From sequence record KY963424: 64,000 nt of DNA. One strand, written 5' to 3'. The position numbers and the translations under genes were made by a program. This DNA comes from Shigella phage SSP1. This document shows positions 2,857 through 63,817 of this stretch, in pieces (the first letter of the stretch is position 1; each line of letters starts with the position of its first letter). The notes below the pieces were generated by a model. That model was given only the letters and a program-made list of their open reading frames with translations. It searched no databases and was not told where the DNA came from.

Positions 2857-3294
2857 ATGGCAAGCAATGTAAAATATAAACGCGATGCTATATCCCTTAT
2901 GAGAGACGGAATAAAAAGTCAATATAAAAAAGACTCTCAATGTGCTATCTGCGGTTGTGCTGAAGAATTAGAGCTTCATCATTACCATACGGTGTCTCTA
3001 CTAGTTAAAAAATTTGCTAAAGAACTCCAATTGGATTTCACTGACGAAGAAATAGTCCTTTCAAATAGGACGGCATTCTATGATCGATATAGGCATGAGC
3101 TAGTAGAAGACACTGTTACCCTTTGTGTACACCATCACCAATTATTACATAAGGTTTACACAAAAGAACCTCCTTTATTTTCTGCTAATAAGCAAAAAGT
3201 GTGGGTTCAAAAGCAGAAAGACAAATTACAGAATCCTCAAGAAAAGACACAAGTCAAGACTGAAACAAAATCAGGATTCGCAAGGTTCTTATAA
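2857..3294 (+). CDS. HNH endonuclease-like protein (terminase-associated)
   Basis: Start moved to ATG 2857 (GAGGAG SD at 2845-2850); the six-frame start at 2770 falls inside the hairpin after terL. CxxC (CAICGC) ... LHHYH ... N ... CVHHHQLLH is consistent with a His-Me finger/HNH motif. Confidence 0.45.
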   Translation: MASNVKYKRDAISLMRDGIKSQYKKDSQCAICGCAEELELHHYHTVSLLVKKFAKELQLDFTDEEIVLSNRTAFYDRYRHELVEDTVTLCVHHHQLLHKVYTKEPPLFSANKQKVWVQKQKDKLQNPQEKTQVKTETKSGFARFL

Positions 3295-4511
3295 TGGGTT
3301 TTAAAAGCTGGATTACTGAAAAGCTAAATCCGGGTCAACGTATTATAAGAGACATGGAACCAGTTAGTCATCGCACTAACCGTAAGCCTTTTACCACTGG
3401 ACAAGCCTACAGTAAAATTGAGATTCTCAATAGAACTGCTAATATGGTTATAGATAGTGCGGCGGAGTGTTCTTATACTGTCGGAGATAAATATAATATT
3501 GTCACGTATGCCAATGGCATCAAGGCAAAGACTCTAGACACTCTCTTAAATGTACGACCTAATCCATTCATGGATATAAGCACATTCCGTAGACTTGTAG
3601 TCACTGACCTACTTTTTGAAGGTTGTGCATACATCTATTGGGATGGCACAGCACTTTATCATGTCCCTGCTGCACTTATGCAAGTAGAGGCAGATGCCAA
3701 TAAGTTTATCAAAAAATTTATATTTAATAATCAGATAGACTATCGCGTAGATGAGATTATCTTTATAAAGGATAACAGTTACGTGTGTGGCACAAATTCT
3801 CAAATTTCTGGACAATCTCGTGTTGCTACTGTTATTGATTCTCTTGAGAAGCGATCTAAGATGCTTAACTTTAAAGAGAAATTCCTCGATAACGGAACCG
3901 TGATTGGTCTTATTCTTGAGACGGATGAAATCCTGAACAAGAAATTGCGTGAGCGTAAACAAGAAGAATTACAACTAGATTATAATCCTAGTACTGGTCA
4001 GTCCTCTGTCCTGATTCTAGATGGTGGTATGAAAGCTAAACCGTACTCCCAAATATCCTCTTTTAAAGATCTAGACTTTAAGGAAGACATTGAAGGATTT
4101 AATAAATCCATCTGTCTAGCCTTTGGTGTTCCGCAAGTGTTACTTGATGGCGGTAATAATGCGAACATTCGACCAAATATCGAACTGTTCTATTACATGA
4201 CTATCATCCCTATGCTGAACAAACTGACTAGTTCTCTTACTTTCTTTTTTGGTTATAAGATTACTCCTAATACTAAGGAAGTAGCTGCGTTAACACCAGA
4301 CAAAGAAGCTGAGGCTAAACATTTAACCTCATTGGTTAATAATGGTATTATGACTGGTAATGAAGCTCGTTTAGAGCTGAACCTTGAACCTTTAGATGAT
4401 GAGCAGATGAATAAGATTCGTATTCCTGCTAACGTTGCTGGTTCTGCAACAGGCGTATCTGGTCAAGAAGGTGGTAGACCTCAAGGTTCCACCGAGGGAG
4501 ATAAAGAATGA
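3294..4511 (+). CDS. Portal protein
   Basis: 405 aa; position between terminase and protease/capsid; size matches T5 portal (pb7-like); start overlaps upstream stop (TAATG). Confidence 0.7.
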   Translation: MGFKSWITEKLNPGQRIIRDMEPVSHRTNRKPFTTGQAYSKIEILNRTANMVIDSAAECSYTVGDKYNIVTYANGIKAKTLDTLLNVRPNPFMDISTFRRLVVTDLLFEGCAYIYWDGTALYHVPAALMQVEADANKFIKKFIFNNQIDYRVDEIIFIKDNSYVCGTNSQISGQSRVATVIDSLEKRSKMLNFKEKFLDNGTVIGLILETDEILNKKLRERKQEELQLDYNPSTGQSSVLILDGGMKAKPYSQISSFKDLDFKEDIEGFNKSICLAFGVPQVLLDGGNNANIRPNIELFYYMTIIPMLNKLTSSLTFFFGYKITPNTKEVAALTPDKEAEAKHLTSLVNNGIMTGNEARLELNLEPLDDEQMNKIRIPANVAGSATGVSGQEGGRPQGSTEGDKE

Positions 4512-49212: not shown

Positions 49213-49602
49213 TTAGTCATTTAATCCCGGAACATAGATCCCAACACGGTTTAATTGTTCTTTAGCTTCTTTGAGAATATCTGGAGTGTACTCCCAAATA
49301 TCATCTTCCACCTGTAAAAGATGGGGCGAACAACCGTCATCCGGCACACGGCATATGGCCAAACCACGTGGGTGGAACAAAGAGAAATTTAGGGCAACAA
49401 TTAAACCCATAGCAGACAATTCATTCCAATCCAATTCCCATTCCCCCGCGTAGCCGGATAGGAAAACACCAACACAGGGATCATCTATTTGCTGCTCCGG
49501 AAAAGTGAAGGAGGCTTGTCTTACCCCCAACCAACGTTGTAGCAGCTTCTCCGCACGTTTCACCAAACTAGGATCAATCTGACGCCAATATACTTGTTCC
49601 AT
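49213..49602 (-). CDS. Hypothetical protein, paralog 1 of tandem pair
   Basis: 129 aa; shares collinear motifs with the adjacent 142-aa ORF (IDD.PC.G ... W.EL..MGL..ALN..LF.P ... Y.P ... G...PGL). Confidence 0.5.
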   Translation of the reverse strand: MEQVYWRQIDPSLVKRAEKLLQRWLGVRQASFTFPEQQIDDPCVGVFLSGYAGEWELDWNELSAMGLIVALNFSLFHPRGLAICRVPDDGCSPHLLQVEDDIWEYTPDILKEAKEQLNRVGIYVPGLND

Positions 49603-49611
49603 TGTGCCCCC

Positions 49612-50040
49612 TTAGGCAGTTAAACCTGGGATCATATACCCGAAACGTCGAAGTTTCTGAATCCCCTCATTTACTTCTTCCGGTGAGTAAGACCAACCAT
49701 AACGTTCATTAACCTGAAAACCAGGAGATTCACTAGTTTTATAGTTAACAACGAGGCGATGCTTAGCAGGCATAAACAGCTTATAGTTTAACGCAAAAAC
49801 TAAGCCCATTTCATCTAACTCTTTCCAGCCGACAATCTCTTCAAGACCCTCCTCTACCTGAACAATTAAACCAATACAGGGAGCCTCATCAATATCATCT
49901 TTAAAAGCAAAGGAGATTTCGTTATTCTCACACCATATTTTCAAAGAGTTAATAGCCTCATTATACAGGCTAGCTGGGAGAGTACGCCAAAAGTTAACCA
50001 AAATTGGATTAGCTTCTTTAGAGAATACATTATTGAACAT
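49612..50040 (-). CDS. Hypothetical protein, paralog 2 of tandem pair
   Basis: 142 aa; see paralog 1. Confidence 0.5.
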   Translation of the reverse strand: MFNNVFSKEANPILVNFWRTLPASLYNEAINSLKIWCENNEISFAFKDDIDEAPCIGLIVQVEEGLEEIVGWKELDEMGLVFALNYKLFMPAKHRLVVNYKTSESPGFQVNERYGWSYSPEEVNEGIQKLRRFGYMIPGLTA

Positions 50041-50042
50041 AT

Positions 50043-50555
50043 TTACACCTTAAATTGTTGTAGGGCTTTACACATTTCAAGATCTGGACTAAATTCTAAC
50101 ATATAGCTAACAGCTCTTAAATCTTGAAGATTTATCCCAGTTCTACCATTGACTATAACTGTTGGATACTGATACATCATAGCACCGGCATCATCCAGCA
50201 CACACCAATGTTTGAGCCTATGCTTTTCAACGAAGCGAAGAACAGAATTACCCCTAGATAATCCACCCCCAGTAAAATCCGTTGTACCAAGAAAACGATC
50301 GATAAGGCCTAATCCGGTCATAATCTGAACGTTCTCCATCTCATTTCTGACAGAGAACCAAGATGATACTCCAACAATCATTATCGGAGAAGGACGAATA
50401 AAGTCCTGAAAAGCCTTGAGAAGCGGTTTGAAAACCCAGTCACTTCCAAAGAAAATCTTTTCATCATCAGGTGCATGATGGTGGGAGATGCTCGAATTGA
50501 GCACCCCATCAATGTCTAGAAAAATAATTGGAATATTACTTATTTCCTGACACAT
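50043..50555 (-). CDS. HAD-superfamily phosphatase (nucleotidase-like)
   Basis: 170 aa; HAD motif I FLDIDGVLN, motif II-like VGVSSW, motif III/IV K ... VLDDAG. Confidence 0.6.
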   Translation of the reverse strand: MCQEISNIPIIFLDIDGVLNSSISHHHAPDDEKIFFGSDWVFKPLLKAFQDFIRPSPIMIVGVSSWFSVRNEMENVQIMTGLGLIDRFLGTTDFTGGGLSRGNSVLRFVEKHRLKHWCVLDDAGAMMYQYPTVIVNGRTGINLQDLRAVSYMLEFSPDLEMCKALQQFKV

Positions 50556-51351
50556 AAGGTCTACCCCCTAAATGAGCTTCTACACGAGCAATAAAATCAG
50601 TATCACTGAAAGCATCTACCGCACCTTTACTCCAGTAAGGGATACCGCGTTCTTCCAGCTGGTACATCTCACTACGAGTCATACCTTGATAGCTCGGTTC
50701 CGCCGCTAGTACACTATCATAGTAGTTAACAACCATAAGTTTCGCAGCAGTCAAATTAAGAACAGGAAATAATTCCCAATAGAAGTTAATTACTTGGTTA
50801 GAGCAACCAACCACAATGATCATATCTTGACTAGTAATACCATCAAAAACATTATACATTTCTGCATACGCTGGAGCATGCTCCCCAAAGAAGACTACAT
50901 TAGGTTTAACCCATTTATAATCATCTGGGTCAATAGAATTGTATCCTACATCAATAATCCGTTTATTGCTACTATTGTAGCTATCAGCTACAACAACCTC
51001 TTTTAAATATCCGTGAATGTGCAGAATGTCACTATGTGGAACGCCAGCACGCTCAATAAGGTCATCAACGTTGGTAGTCAAGTTTACTACTTGACCTGGG
51101 TATTGTTTATACCATTCACCAATACGCAAATGCGCAAGATTGGGTTCAACAGTTTTTAGCTCTTCACGACGCTTGTTGTAAAACATATGGGTTTTATGGT
51201 AAAAATTACCACGAAAGGCATGAATATTACACACTTCTTCTAGATCATAATCATCCCACAATGCTTTACCACTAGCAGTATCAGTACGAAAAGCTCGTAC
51301 ACCACTTTCAACACTCAAACCTGCACCGCTAATAATAATTAACCTACGCAC
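50536..51351 (-). CDS. SIR2-family (sirtuin-like) NAD-binding protein lacking the zinc ribbon
   Basis: 271 aa; ISGAGLSVESGVRAFR (sirtuin GAGIS.ESGIP.FR), TTNVDDLIERAG ... HIHG (TQNID.L ... HG), NVVFFGE, IIVVGCSNQV (VVGTS-like); no CxxC pairs. Confidence 0.7.
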   Translation of the reverse strand: MRRLIIISGAGLSVESGVRAFRTDTASGKALWDDYDLEEVCNIHAFRGNFYHKTHMFYNKRREELKTVEPNLAHLRIGEWYKQYPGQVVNLTTNVDDLIERAGVPHSDILHIHGYLKEVVVADSYNSSNKRIIDVGYNSIDPDDYKWVKPNVVFFGEHAPAYAEMYNVFDGITSQDMIIVVGCSNQVINFYWELFPVLNLTAAKLMVVNYYDSVLAAEPSYQGMTRSEMYQLEERGIPYWSKGAVDAFSDTDFIARVEAHLGGRPYVSGNK

Positions 51352-58407: not shown

Positions 58408-59553
58408 ATGACTACTTTACTAAACCTGAACTGGGATCATACTAACGCTGACCTTTTCCTGGGAGATTCTCTCGGTATCGCAGATTATGTACGTGTAGCA
58501 CATCCAGAACTAGAACGTCTGGCACTTCTGCAACGCTCTCAATTTTGGACTGAAACTGAAATCAGTCTGGAAGCAGATAAGAAACAATGGCCTAATCTCC
58601 CGCGTGAAATTCAGGAAATTACACTCCTGAACTTAGCATGGCAGACTCAAACAGATTCCTTTATCAGTCGTGCTCCTGAAGCAGCTATTATGCCGCTTGT
58701 AAGTCGTCCAGAATTGGAAGGTATGCTCAAGCAGTGGAGCTACTTCGAAGATCTACATAGTCGTGCTTATAGCAATATTATTCGTAATGTGCTAACTGAT
58801 CCAGCAGAATTTATTGATTCTGTAACCAAAAACCAAGAAGCATTCGCACGCATCGCTGATTCTGTTGAACTATTCGATGAACTGTACCAGTTAGGTCAGT
58901 ATTTCATCGCAGTACGCGATCATCGTGGCGACAATACATATCCAGAAACTGAGTTCCCTGAAGTTAAACGTGAAACTCAGGCTAAACTATTAGACGCTTA
59001 CTTTGCGATCTATGGTCTGGAAGCAATGCAGTTTTACGCATCCTTTGCATGTACCTTTGCATTAGCAGAGAACGATATTCTGCAAGGTATTGCTAAAAAT
59101 CTGCAATTAATCGCTAAAGATGAAGCTCTGCACACTCAGATGTCCAAAGCAATCATCCAGATTATGTTCCAGCAGTTTGACAAAGACCTGGTGGATGAAG
59201 CAGTGGCTAAAGCACCAGCACAGCTCCTGAAAACTCTGAAAACTGAAATTGAATGGGGTCACTTCATTTTCAAAGGTCGTAGTCTGATTGGCTTGAATGC
59301 AGAACTTCTAGAAGAATATCTGTACTTTGTGGGGCGTAATGCATTTATGCACATCGGTGTAGAATGGCCAAGTAACCTGCCGGTAATCACCAAGAACCCT
59401 ATTCCATGGATCATGAACTGGTTGGATACCACTTCTTTACAGCCTGCTCCACAAGAAATCCAGATTGGTGCAGCATATCGTGTAGGTCAGGTAACTGAGA
59501 CCTCTACTGATACTCTGAAAGATCTGGGCAATGAATTTGGAGATTTCTTATGA
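58408..59553 (+). CDS. nrdB: Ribonucleoside-diphosphate reductase beta subunit (class Ia)
   Basis: 381 aa; ferritin-like fold with di-iron ligand pattern (E ... H) and radical tyrosine region; immediately followed by frd with 4-nt overlap. Confidence 0.9.
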   Translation: MTTLLNLNWDHTNADLFLGDSLGIADYVRVAHPELERLALLQRSQFWTETEISLEADKKQWPNLPREIQEITLLNLAWQTQTDSFISRAPEAAIMPLVSRPELEGMLKQWSYFEDLHSRAYSNIIRNVLTDPAEFIDSVTKNQEAFARIADSVELFDELYQLGQYFIAVRDHRGDNTYPETEFPEVKRETQAKLLDAYFAIYGLEAMQFYASFACTFALAENDILQGIAKNLQLIAKDEALHTQMSKAIIQIMFQQFDKDLVDEAVAKAPAQLLKTLKTEIEWGHFIFKGRSLIGLNAELLEEYLYFVGRNAFMHIGVEWPSNLPVITKNPIPWIMNWLDTTSLQPAPQEIQIGAAYRVGQVTETSTDTLKDLGNEFGDFL

Positions 59554-60083
59554 TAACGGCATTATATGCAGTTGGGCCGAATGGGGAGTTCGGCCTCCGA
59601 GGTAAACTCCCCTGGGGTTCCTTCAAAGAAGAACTAGATGCTTTCTACTCTCAACTGGACGTGTTGAACCCAGATAACATCATCATTGGTGCGGGCACTT
59701 ATTTAGCACTTCCAGAAGTTGTTCGGCAACGTATGATTGGAGAATCTGACCTCTTTATTCGTGCGGATCGTCCTCTGCCTGATGATATTAAACATGGTAT
59801 TTACACTCCAATTTCTAAGATTGGGGATACATTACCTACGTTCTTAAAAGATCAACAGACAGTGGTTTTAGGTGGTGCAACATTACTGTACGAAATGTAT
59901 ATTCATGGACATATTGAAAGTGCTTTTGTATCAACAATCTTTAGTAATCAAAAACTAGAGGCAGATGTACATCTGGATAATATGATTCTAGATTACAACT
60001 ATGAATCTACTCGTTTAGTTTACGCAACTGGCGCAAACAGTGATAACAGCCTGCGATTTGTACAGGAATTGGTTACTTATTAA
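59550..60083 (+). CDS. frd: Dihydrofolate reductase
   Basis: 177 aa; N-terminal MITALYAVGPNGEFG ... LPW pattern typical of DHFR; sits between nrdB and thyA. Confidence 0.8.
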   Translation: MITALYAVGPNGEFGLRGKLPWGSFKEELDAFYSQLDVLNPDNIIIGAGTYLALPEVVRQRMIGESDLFIRADRPLPDDIKHGIYTPISKIGDTLPTFLKDQQTVVLGGATLLYEMYIHGHIESAFVSTIFSNQKLEADVHLDNMILDYNYESTRLVYATGANSDNSLRFVQELVTY

Positions 60084-61021: not shown

Positions 61022-61405
61022 ATGAGTAAAGAAATTGAATTAGAACAAGCCCTTCTGAATTACTCCAATTACTTGCAGGGTGATAAAGAAACTATTACTA
61101 AGGAACAGGTATTATTAATACTAGACTCTATCACTTCTAAATTCAGGACTTTAGAAGACTACTACTCTGTAGGCAATGGAGATGAGAAGGTAGAGTTATG
61201 TCTAAATCTCCTAGAAGATATGGGTTGGGATGAGGAAGATCAAGTAGGGTATTTAGGTATATCTACAGAAATTCTAGAAAATACAGAGCATGAAAATATA
61301 CTTGAAGTAAAGAGCAGAAGTGCTATTCGATATAATACTTATGGTACAGGTATTACAGGAATAAAAGCATTACTTAGTATAGACATAGGATGGTTAGATG
61401 AGTAA
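61022..61405 (+). CDS. Hypothetical acidic protein
   Basis: 127-aa ORF downstream of the palindromic promoter. Confidence 0.45.
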   Translation: MSKEIELEQALLNYSNYLQGDKETITKEQVLLILDSITSKFRTLEDYYSVGNGDEKVELCLNLLEDMGWDEEDQVGYLGISTEILENTEHENILEVKSRSAIRYNTYGTGITGIKALLSIDIGWLDE

Positions 61406-61946
61406 AAAGTTACCTAGCCAAGAAAGATTAAAAGAAATACTAATCTATGATCCAGATACTGGTATATTTACTAATAAGGTAAGTCGTGGTAGGGGAGGAA
61501 AAGCAGGTTCGCCAGCTGGATACCTAAGAAAAGATGGCTATATAACTATTAAGATAGATAAAATAGATTATTTAGCGCATAGGTTAGCCTTTCTATACAT
61601 GACAGGATCAATACCTGATTTAATAGACCACAAAAATAGAATTAGGTCAGATAATAGGTGGATAAATCTAAGAGAAGCTACAAGCCAGTCTAATAACAGA
61701 AATTGTACCGCATCGAGTAAATCTGGATATCTAGGTGTACACTGGAACAAACAACTACAGAAATGGCAAGTACAGGTGATTGATAATAATGGTAAAAATA
61801 TTTACGGGGGTGTTTTTGATTACTTAGACCTAGAAAGTGCGGTCATAAAGGCTAATGAACTAAGAAAAACACTTCATGGTAGCGAAGCAGTTATAGAAGA
61901 TTTCTATACCAACTATTACCCACCAATAGAGGAACTTAATAAGTGA
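61398..61946 (+). CDS. HNH homing endonuclease with AP2-type DNA-binding domain
   Basis: 182 aa; HNH_3-type motif (HRLAFLYMTGSIPDLIDHKNRIRSDNRWINLREATSQSNNRN) followed by AP2-like segment (GYLGVHWNKQLQKWQVQVIDNNGKNIYGGVFDYLDLESA). Confidence 0.7.
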   Translation: MSKKLPSQERLKEILIYDPDTGIFTNKVSRGRGGKAGSPAGYLRKDGYITIKIDKIDYLAHRLAFLYMTGSIPDLIDHKNRIRSDNRWINLREATSQSNNRNCTASSKSGYLGVHWNKQLQKWQVQVIDNNGKNIYGGVFDYLDLESAVIKANELRKTLHGSEAVIEDFYTNYYPPIEELNK

Positions 61947-62419
61947 GCGTTTTCCACATTTACACAGATGGTGCTTGTAAGTCTAACCCAGGTCCAGGTG
62001 CTTGGGGTTTTATTGTTTATGATGATAACGACGATCGTTTAGGTTCTAAATCTGGTTATAATCCTAAAACTACAAATAATGAGATGGAACTCACAGCTAT
62101 TGTAGAAGCTTTACGTTGGTCTGTTAAAAAAGATAATAGACCAATTGCTATCTATACTGACTCTGCTTATTGCAAAAATGGCATGGAAAGTTGGATGTTT
62201 TCTTGGCAAAGGAAAGGCTGGAAGAAAGCAGATGGTGAAGTTCCTCTTAATCTAGAACTTTGGCAGGAAGCATTTAAATTAACACAGCAGTATATCAACT
62301 TTCATAATACTAATCCTACCTTTATTAAGGTTAAAGGACATTCTGGTATTAGTGGTAATGAAGCTGTAGATGCATTGTGTAATACTGTTATTACTGAAGC
62401 TGAAATGGCTGAGATGTAA
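61943..62419 (+). CDS. rnh: Ribonuclease H
   Basis: 158 aa; RNase HI pattern (IYTDGACKSNPGPGAWG ... NNEMELTA ... IYTDS ... KGHSG ... NE.VD.L). Confidence 0.85.
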   Translation: MSVFHIYTDGACKSNPGPGAWGFIVYDDNDDRLGSKSGYNPKTTNNEMELTAIVEALRWSVKKDNRPIAIYTDSAYCKNGMESWMFSWQRKGWKKADGEVPLNLELWQEAFKLTQQYINFHNTNPTFIKVKGHSGISGNEAVDALCNTVITEAEMAEM

Positions 62420-62439
62420 TAAATAAATTAAAAATTCAC

Positions 62440-62468
62440 TTGCTTAAAGCCCTCTAATTTAGTATAAT
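62440..62468 (+). promoter_or_regulatory. sigma70 early promoter
   Basis: AAATTAAAAATTCACTTGCTT: TTGCTT - 17 bp - TATAAT, then GAGGAGGG SD. Confidence 0.65.
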
Positions 62469-62495
62469 ATTCGTATTGAAAGTGAGGAGGGCTTT

Positions 62496-62780
62496 ATGCG
62501 GATTTATAACTCAAATTCATTAGGATTTAAGCCATTGAGAAAACGTGCACAATCACCTCGTCAAATAAGAAAGGCTAATATTGGTGAGCCAGAAACACGT
62601 CTTCCACCTCCTCCAGAGCAACGTTTAGTTTATCTGGACGAAGAGTTAGCTGAACGCGAAAGAAAAGCTCAAGAAGAGATTGAGCGTAAGAAAATGTGTA
62701 CTGCTCCAGCCTACTCCAAAGGGGCTTATCAGTATATCTATACAGCCGAGGAGGCTAAAGATGCGGGGCGTAAAAAATGA
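62496..62780 (+). CDS. Hypothetical protein
   Basis: 94-aa ORF with strong SD. Confidence 0.45.
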   Translation: MRIYNSNSLGFKPLRKRAQSPRQIRKANIGEPETRLPPPPEQRLVYLDEELAERERKAQEEIERKKMCTAPAYSKGAYQYIYTAEEAKDAGRKK

Positions 62781-63226
62781 AGATTACCGAATTTAAAGGT
62801 ACTTATAGTTTCTTATCTAACTTTTATTTATCACCAATTACTTTCGAATACCTAAACGAGATATGGCATGCTGATACTGTAGAACATGCTTTTCAGGCTA
62901 TGAAATCCGACCAAAAAGATGATGTAGCTCATGTACTGCGCTCCCTAAATGCAGGTGTTGCCAAACGTAGAGGACGTAAATTAACTCTGCGCTCTGACTG
63001 GGATAAGGTAAAAGATGATGTAATGCTAGAGCTTTTACGGTTAAAGTTTGCAATCCCTGATTTGAGAGACAAACTGTTAGCAACAAAAAATGCAACTTTG
63101 ATCGAAGGAAATACCTGGGGAGATACATATTGGGGTGTTTGCCGAGGAATCGGGGATAATACTTTAGGAGTTCTTTTGATGCAGGTAAGGTCTGAAATTA
63201 AAAGAAGCTTACAGTTAATAAATTAA
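62777..63226 (+). CDS. NADAR-domain (YbiA-like, DUF1768) protein
   Basis: 149 aa; YSFLSNFY ... VEHAFQAMK ... W ... NTWGDTYWG ... GDNTLGVLLMQVR matches the NADAR signature well. Confidence 0.7.
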   Translation: MKITEFKGTYSFLSNFYLSPITFEYLNEIWHADTVEHAFQAMKSDQKDDVAHVLRSLNAGVAKRRGRKLTLRSDWDKVKDDVMLELLRLKFAIPDLRDKLLATKNATLIEGNTWGDTYWGVCRGIGDNTLGVLLMQVRSEIKRSLQLIN

Positions 63227-63234
63227 AAATTCAT

Positions 63235-63263
63235 TTGCTAAACGCTTCAAATTCTCGTATAAT
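63235..63263 (+). promoter_or_regulatory. sigma70 early promoter
   Basis: AAATTAAAAATTCATTTGCTA: TTGCTA - 17 bp - TATAAT. Confidence 0.65.
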
Positions 63264-63301
63264 ATACTTCATAAATTGATAAACAAAAAGGAAAACAAAT
63301 A

Positions 63302-63817
63302 ATGGCTAAGCAGAAAAACGCAAAAACTCAAGCAGCTCCGGCAGTTAAAACTTTCCCGAAGACTGAGGCTAATCGCAAAGCTCGTCTGGAACGTCACCTG
63401 CGTAAGCATCCTACCGATGCTCAGGCTGCGCAAGCACTGAATAATCCGGCTCCGATTCGTCAGAAGCCTAAAGCTAAAAATGCCACCCGTAAATCCTACA
63501 AAATGGTTATGTATGTAGAAAATTACGGCCACAAATCTGTCCCAGTTTCCCTGAGCTTCAACGCCGGGGCTGAATTGTTCTCTCGTAATGGCATGGCTAT
63601 GAAAGACTATGAGAAAGCAGTTAACCAAAAACGTAAACCAACGGCAGACGTACTACGTGATGCTCGTGGACAGTTTGGTTCTGTTAAGCCAAATATCTTT
63701 GGCGTAGAGTATAGTAAAGATAACGTTCGCGCTCTGTGTTACGGCGTAGGTATTAAGTTCACGGGTGATTCTGCTCGTAAATCTGCTAAACCAGCTCGTA
63801 AGCGTAAAGCGAAGTAA
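63302..63817 (+). CDS. Hypothetical basic (Lys/Arg-rich) protein, probably highly expressed
   Basis: 171 aa; strong promoter; host-optimised codons (CTG, CGT, GGT, AAA); pI clearly basic. Confidence 0.5.
   Translation: MAKQKNAKTQAAPAVKTFPKTEANRKARLERHLRKHPTDAQAAQALNNPAPIRQKPKAKNATRKSYKMVMYVENYGHKSVPVSLSFNAGAELFSRNGMAMKDYEKAVNQKRKPTADVLRDARGQFGSVKPNIFGVEYSKDNVRALCYGVGIKFTGDSARKSAKPARKRKAK

Follow-up and report, generated by a model that had tools for sequence, protein, structure and literature searches.

Results

A NADAR gene among the early genes of a T5-like phage

The window analysed here is a stretch of 64,000 nucleotides from Shigella phage SSP1 (sequence record KY963424). Hundreds of T5-like Escherichia and Salmonella phages are 95-98% identical to its last 2 kb and to its last 24.5 kb, an affinity that places the window in a T5-like phage (Demerecviridae, Markadamsvirinae). 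An ATG-started ORF at 62777-63226 on the plus strand encodes a NADAR-domain protein of 149 amino acids, and the features at and around it are the following:

62440..62468 (+), putative T5-type early promoter, TTGCTT-17-TATAAT with an A-rich upstream block (sequence and annotated counterpart in T5)
62496..62780 (+), 94-aa ORF (ORF94), T5.090 homologue, phrog_4593, a core gene of T5-like phages
62777..63226 (+), NADAR ADP-ribosyl-guanine glycohydrolase, orthologue of AdfN^Bas32 / bas33_0070 (PF08719, structural model and sequence identity)
62882-62884, 62903-62905 and 63104-63106 (+), predicted catalytic codons E36, K43 and E110 of the NADAR gene, respectively (alignment to known NADARs)
63235..63263 (+), putative strong early promoter, TTGCTA-17-TATAAT, counterpart of T5 P-H207 (promoter scan), downstream of the NADAR stop codon
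63302-63817 (+), DUF7022 gene, T5.089 homologue (DUF7022 domain match)

Upstream and on the same strand lie nrdA, nrdB, an ORF at the DHFR position, thyA, a 127-aa ORF, an HNH endonuclease gene and the RNase H gene, with nrdD further upstream on the opposite strand. This is the order of the T5 early genes T5.096 to T5.091, except that T5 has neither the 127-aa ORF nor the endonuclease, and the original prediction was thus right to place the NADAR gene in an early nucleotide-metabolism block. Within that block, the ORF at the T5 frd position (59550-60083, plus strand) had no Pfam match at E <= 1e-5 and may encode a divergent DHFR. The 127-aa ORF, without a domain match, and the endonuclease, a 182-aa HNH_3 protein, occupy 61022-61946 (plus strand) between thymidylate synthase and RNase H, where T5 has only a promoter, and together they look like a homing-endonuclease insertion. 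A separate minus-strand block at 49213-51351 contains a Sir2-family ORF (50536-51351), an ORF with the 'Swiss Army Knife RNA repair' HAD domain HAD_SAK_2 (50043-50555) and two DUF7415 ORFs (49213-50040). The T5 genes that correspond to this block, by position and annotation only, include T5.102 and T5.105, both annotated as Sir2. With this block, the phage that has the NADAR gene also carries a member of an NAD-dependent enzyme family.

The NADAR gene probably shares an early transcript with ORF94

The suggestion that the gene has a strong promoter of its own did not hold. The start codon (ATG, 62777) and the stop codon of ORF94 (TGA, 62778-62780) overlap as ATGA at 62777-62780, and there is consequently zero intergenic space in front of the gene; neither the sequence directly upstream of 62777 nor a consensus promoter scan, in which the interval from 62309 to 63061 was free of sigma-70-like sites, provided a candidate. 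The element that prompted the suggestion was probably the promoter at 63235-63263. From sequence comparison, this promoter is that of the downstream DUF7022 gene, and the NADAR insertion has its right edge here, the window being 100% identical from 63225 to 63315 to the T5 stretch that contains the annotated P-H207 and the start of T5.089.

A better candidate lies in front of ORF94, where the segment with the promoter at 62440-62468 is nearly identical to the rnh-T5.090 segment of T5, for which the T5 record annotates a promoter. The scan missed this site because its -35 hexamer matches at only 3/6 positions. ORF94, which has no match in Pfam or NCBIfam searches, is preceded by a strong Shine-Dalgarno sequence (GAGGAGG, 62484-62490), and the interval 62496-63226 has no predicted plus-strand terminator. 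The promoter at 62440-62468 probably drives a two-gene unit of ORF94 and NADAR, and a two-gene early transcript on which NADAR is translationally coupled to ORF94 is the most likely arrangement.

Family, fold and active site

The 149-aa product had been predicted to match the NADAR/YbiA signature, and a profile search bore this out: Pfam PF08719 (NADAR / DUF1768) matched with 79 bits (E 6.3e-22) against a gathering cut-off of 35.1 bits, over residues 9-142 of the protein and positions 9-163 of the 163 profile positions, a match far beyond chance. The protein also matched phrog_1017 (PHROG 1017, E 8e-45), which is labelled as of unknown function. By sequence, the closest solved structures are those of E. 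coli YbiA (2b3w, E 2.8e-15) and of a NADAR from Phytophthora nicotianae in complex with ADP-ribose (8bau, E 6.8e-7). An AlphaFold2 model, built with an alignment of 39 homologues of 48-59% identity drawn from a search of 5.8 billion proteins, reached a pLDDT of 97.4 and a pTM of 0.91. Compared by Foldseek, the model matched 2b3w with a TM score of 0.82 and 37% identity and 8bau with a TM score of 0.78, at a probability of 1.00 in both cases.

In the P. nicotianae NADAR the key residues are E43, K50 and E125, equivalent to E88, K95 and D171 of the E. coli C7 NADAR (Schuller et al., PMC11543638). HMMER alignments, against which the TVEHAFQAMK motif was put in register by hand, align these with E36, K43 and E110 of the phage protein, and all three are invariant across the 40-sequence homologue alignment (48-59% identity). 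Residue 110 is thus the Glu of YbiA-type proteins, neither the Asp of DarT1-linked NADARs nor the His that T4-type phage NADARs are reported to carry at this position (PMC11543638, PMC11257639). With residue roles transferred from the homologues (PMC11543638), Glu36 and Glu110 would be expected to act at the distal ribose and Lys43 at the diphosphate. By profile, by its YbiA-like alpha-helical core fold and by its catalytic residues, the 149-aa protein belongs to the NADAR superfamily.

Identity with a protein of reported activity

The SSP1 protein is 100% identical over its 149 amino acids to bas33_0070 (QXV80081.1) of Escherichia phage HildyBeyeler (Bas33, MZ501074), and bas32_0066 (QXV80247.1) of phage IrisVonRoten (Bas32, MZ501075) is identical at 147 of 149 positions (98.7%), the differences being T9A and K104E. 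Johannesman, Carlson and LeRoux (Nat Commun 2025, PMC11825919; preprint PMC11257639) named the NADAR of Bas32 and Bas33 AdfN^Bas32. That paper calls the two proteins identical, whereas their GenBank entries differ at these two residues, and the SSP1 allele is that of Bas33.

The original prediction had proposed that the gene reverses DarT-type guanine modification as a counter-defence against DarTG, and had suggested co-expression with DarT1 as a check. For AdfN^Bas32, which differs from the SSP1 protein by at most two residues, a rescue of this kind has already been published. AdfN^Bas32 is reported to neutralise DarT1 toxicity in uninfected E. coli with no need for another phage factor and, when expressed ectopically, to bring RB69, T5 and Bas25 back to full titre on DarTG1 hosts (PMC11825919). 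Both the DarT1 rescue and the restored plaquing support the proposal. On hosts with the thymidine-modifying DarTG2, T5 plaquing was reportedly unaffected by AdfN^Bas32 (PMC11825919). As described there, the protein was tested by ectopic expression only, and the accessible text of PMC11825919 mentions neither a native phage with the gene deleted nor an in vitro assay or a catalytic mutant of AdfN^Bas32. Besides this 2024/2025 paper, our literature search returned a HIDEN-SEQ preprint on T4 adfN and no later work on T5-like AdfN. The function of the SSP1 gene is therefore already in the 2025 literature, since a protein with at most two differences was tested there, and the idea of an anti-DarTG1 role is not new.

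The NADAR gene is an accessory insertion

Of 50,697 phage records searched by tblastn, 94 had a NADAR copy at 95% identity or more, with the next-best matches below 60%; about one fifth of T5-like records carry the gene, and T5 itself does not. In T5 the order is rnh, promoter, T5.090, P-H207 and T5.089, and P-H207 follows directly on T5.090. Compared with this layout, the SSP1 window has the last ~45 nt of its T5.090 homologue replaced and the NADAR gene added, with the right-hand junction exactly at the NADAR stop codon. The NADAR gene is thus an accessory insertion in T5-like phages. Base composition gave no signal of foreign origin, the GC content of the gene being ~0.40-0.42 and that of its neighbours 0.31-0.48.

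ORF94 itself was found by tblastn in 539 phage records, with an identity of at least 80% in 437. There are 95 alleles of ORF94 with at least 95% identity, matching the number of NADAR carriers (94). We rejected a functional link between the two genes: most of the 539 records are free of NADAR, so that ORF94 does not depend on it, and ORF94 has no domain match.

The promoters within 62420-62475 and 63215-63270 share the upstream block AATAAATTAAAAATTCAyTTGCT and flank the ORF94-NADAR unit. The second copy of this block contains the end of the NADAR coding sequence, and the A-rich promoter-upstream element may therefore be the recombination junction of the insertion. In Salmonella phage vB_SenS_UTK0009 (NC_111487), a 60%-identical NADAR lies between RNase H and the T5.090 homologue (2489-2938 of the segment compared), one gene upstream of the SSP1 insertion site. 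This suggests a second, independent acquisition in the same early-gene neighbourhood, and the rnh / T5.090 / P-H207 interval may be a recurrent landing site for NADAR-type genes in T5-like phages. Escherichia phage EP_H11 (OP688485) has a NADAR 42-43% identical to that of SSP1 in a different neighbourhood (2974-3630 of the segment compared), with an extra acidic C-terminal tail of ~60 amino acids.

Discussion

We consider it highly probable that the SSP1 gene encodes a stand-alone NADAR ADP-ribosylglycohydrolase of the AdfN class, an orphan, antitoxin-like enzyme directed against DarTG1. DarT1 joins ADP-ribose to guanine N2 in DNA and blocks phage DNA replication (Schuller et al., PMC11543638). 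When SSP1 infects a DarTG1 host, DarT1 would be released and would place ADP-ribose on the N2 amino group of guanines in the phage DNA, with replication blocked as the result. The phage NADAR would probably be made early, as its T5.090-type promoter and translational coupling to ORF94 suggest, and, by analogy with its homologues, would cleave the ribose-guanine N-glycosidic bond, returning the DNA to its unmodified state and allowing replication to proceed. That T5, which lacks the gene, is reportedly DarTG1-sensitive and is rescued by AdfN^Bas32 in trans (PMC11825919) fits the NADAR gene as a resistance determinant. The two neighbouring genes, the T5.090 homologue and the DUF7022 gene, were searched for a DarT and neither matched; the SSP1 NADAR is a phage-encoded orphan antitoxin with no cognate DarT alongside.

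The anti-DarTG1 enzyme may have a wider range. Under this reading, which extends the explanation above rather than replacing it and which we regard as possible though rather unlikely, the protein would be a broader-spectrum de-ADP-ribosylase that also acts on guanosine-ADPr in RNA or on cytidine-ADPr, and would counter other, partly undiscovered ADP-ribosylating defences or toxins. NADARs, including those of the YbiA type, reverse guanosine ADP-ribosylation on RNA (PMC11833690), and certain NADARs and YbiA-type proteins are reported to reverse cytidine ADP-ribosylation (PMC12945103). The SSP1 protein is YbiA-like in sequence and fold, yet the T5-like AdfN, unlike YbiA, is fully protective in vivo, and AdfN^Bas32 is described as not confined to the DNA of one phage, unlike AdfN^T4 (PMC11825919). 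On the other hand, we found no literature on RNA or cytidine substrates for a protein of the AdfN^Bas32 type, and the reported inactivity of AdfN^Bas32 against the thymidine modification made by DarT2 (PMC11825919) sets a limit to its range. If true, a broad-spectrum AdfN would protect against ADP-ribosylating defences or toxins besides DarTG1.

The resemblance to YbiA also raises the question of whether the gene is a housekeeping N-glycosidase that destroys reactive intermediates of the riboflavin pathway, with its anti-DarT1 activity incidental. YbiA is the best match among solved structures, position 110 has the YbiA-type Glu where T4-type phage NADARs have His, and in many GenBank records the gene appears as YbiA or 'GTP cyclohydrolase II'. 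We nonetheless judge this very improbable. The YbiA equivalog model TIGR02464, 'riboflavin biosynthesis intermediates N-glycosidase', matched with 66.8 bits (E 2.6e-18), under its curated cut-off of 73.7, and membership was rejected; no riboflavin genes lie nearby, and for an accessory gene that about one fifth of T5-like records carry, an arms-race role is a better fit than a metabolic one. Johannesman et al. group AdfN^Bas32 with archaeal-type, non-YbiA NADARs (PMC11825919). In vivo, E. coli YbiA fails to protect against DarT1 toxicity (PMC11125620), whereas AdfN^Bas32 is reported to do so (PMC11825919). As a protein with 37% identity fails in this respect, the function cannot be read from homology alone, and its assignment rests on the published AdfN^Bas32 experiment.

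It is equally hard to credit that the protein is a non-enzymatic antitoxin mimic, binding and blocking DarT1 without DNA repair, given the invariance of E36, K43 and E110 in the 40 homologues and the lack of the N-terminal extension typical of DarT1-associated NADARs. The non-enzymatic phage NADAR cited by Johannesman et al. is probably the antitoxin mimic of a Vibrio phage described in PMC11481870. The precedent of that other phage NADAR, reported to work without enzymatic activity (PMC11257639), and the absence of a catalytic mutant of AdfN^Bas32 from the accessible text of PMC11825919 leave some room for such a mechanism; against it, the 2025 paper credits the rescue to glycohydrolase activity (PMC11825919).

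The gene is an example of an antitoxin-type repair enzyme taken over by lytic phages to reverse the DNA ADP-ribosylation that a toxin-antitoxin defence inflicts. The presence or absence of NADAR probably predicts whether a T5-like phage grows on E. coli or Salmonella carrying DarTG1, and such predictions would be relevant to the choice of therapeutic phages. Because both the principle and the activity of the protein were published in 2025, our finding mainly improves annotation: most GenBank records label the gene 'swarming motility protein YbiA', 'GTP cyclohydrolase II', 'DUF1768' or 'hypothetical'.

Among known systems, the closest are AdfN^Bas32 and its Bas33 counterpart, which come from the same phage group (Markadamsvirinae) and have the same flanks as the SSP1 gene, a T5.090 homologue upstream and a DUF7022 / T5.089 homologue downstream. 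The thyA-rnh interval holds the 127-aa ORF and the HNH endonuclease in SSP1 and one small ORF in HildyBeyeler; otherwise there is no difference of substance. AdfN^T4 (T4 gp30.3), the founding anti-DarTG1 NADAR of phages, belongs to the same superfamily, has the same role in removing DarT1-made guanine ADP-ribose and conserves the motif Glu and Lys (E36 and K43 in SSP1). The two proteins nevertheless have no significant pairwise similarity (BLASTP E 1.2; ~22% identity in a multiple alignment), and this value, together with Glu110 in place of His, led us to reject membership of the T4 gp30.3-like clade. AdfN^Bas32 is likewise placed in a different NADAR clade from that of T4, and AdfN^T4 is reported to work in the T-even context only and not to rescue uninfected cells from DarT1, whereas AdfN^Bas32 does (PMC11825919).

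DarG1, represented by the E. coli C7 NADAR and by the Geobacter lovleyi NADAR (PDB 8bat), catalyses the same reaction and neutralises the same toxin. It differs in having an Asp171-type residue, where SSP1 has the YbiA-type Glu, and in its N-terminal beta-beta-alpha extension and adjacent DarT gene, both of which SSP1 lacks. The SSP1 protein starts at the core, its residue 9 corresponding to residue 25 of YbiA, and it is not one of the DarG1-type antitoxins; the DarT1-associated 8bat gave a weak fold match to the SSP1 model by Foldseek (TM 0.50, E 0.27). E. coli YbiA (2b3w), the riboflavin-intermediate N-glycosidase, is of similar length and has the same Glu/Lys/Glu catalytic arrangement, but the SSP1 protein is phage-borne and accessory. 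On the defence side, the SSP1 NADAR scored 45 bits with NCBIfam NF053876, 'DS32_2 NADAR family anti-phage protein' (cut-off 240), and matched the PADLOC candidate PDC-M42C weakly (E 6e-7); we read both as matches to a shared domain and not as membership of these families. NADAR domains are evidently used by both phage and host in their conflict.
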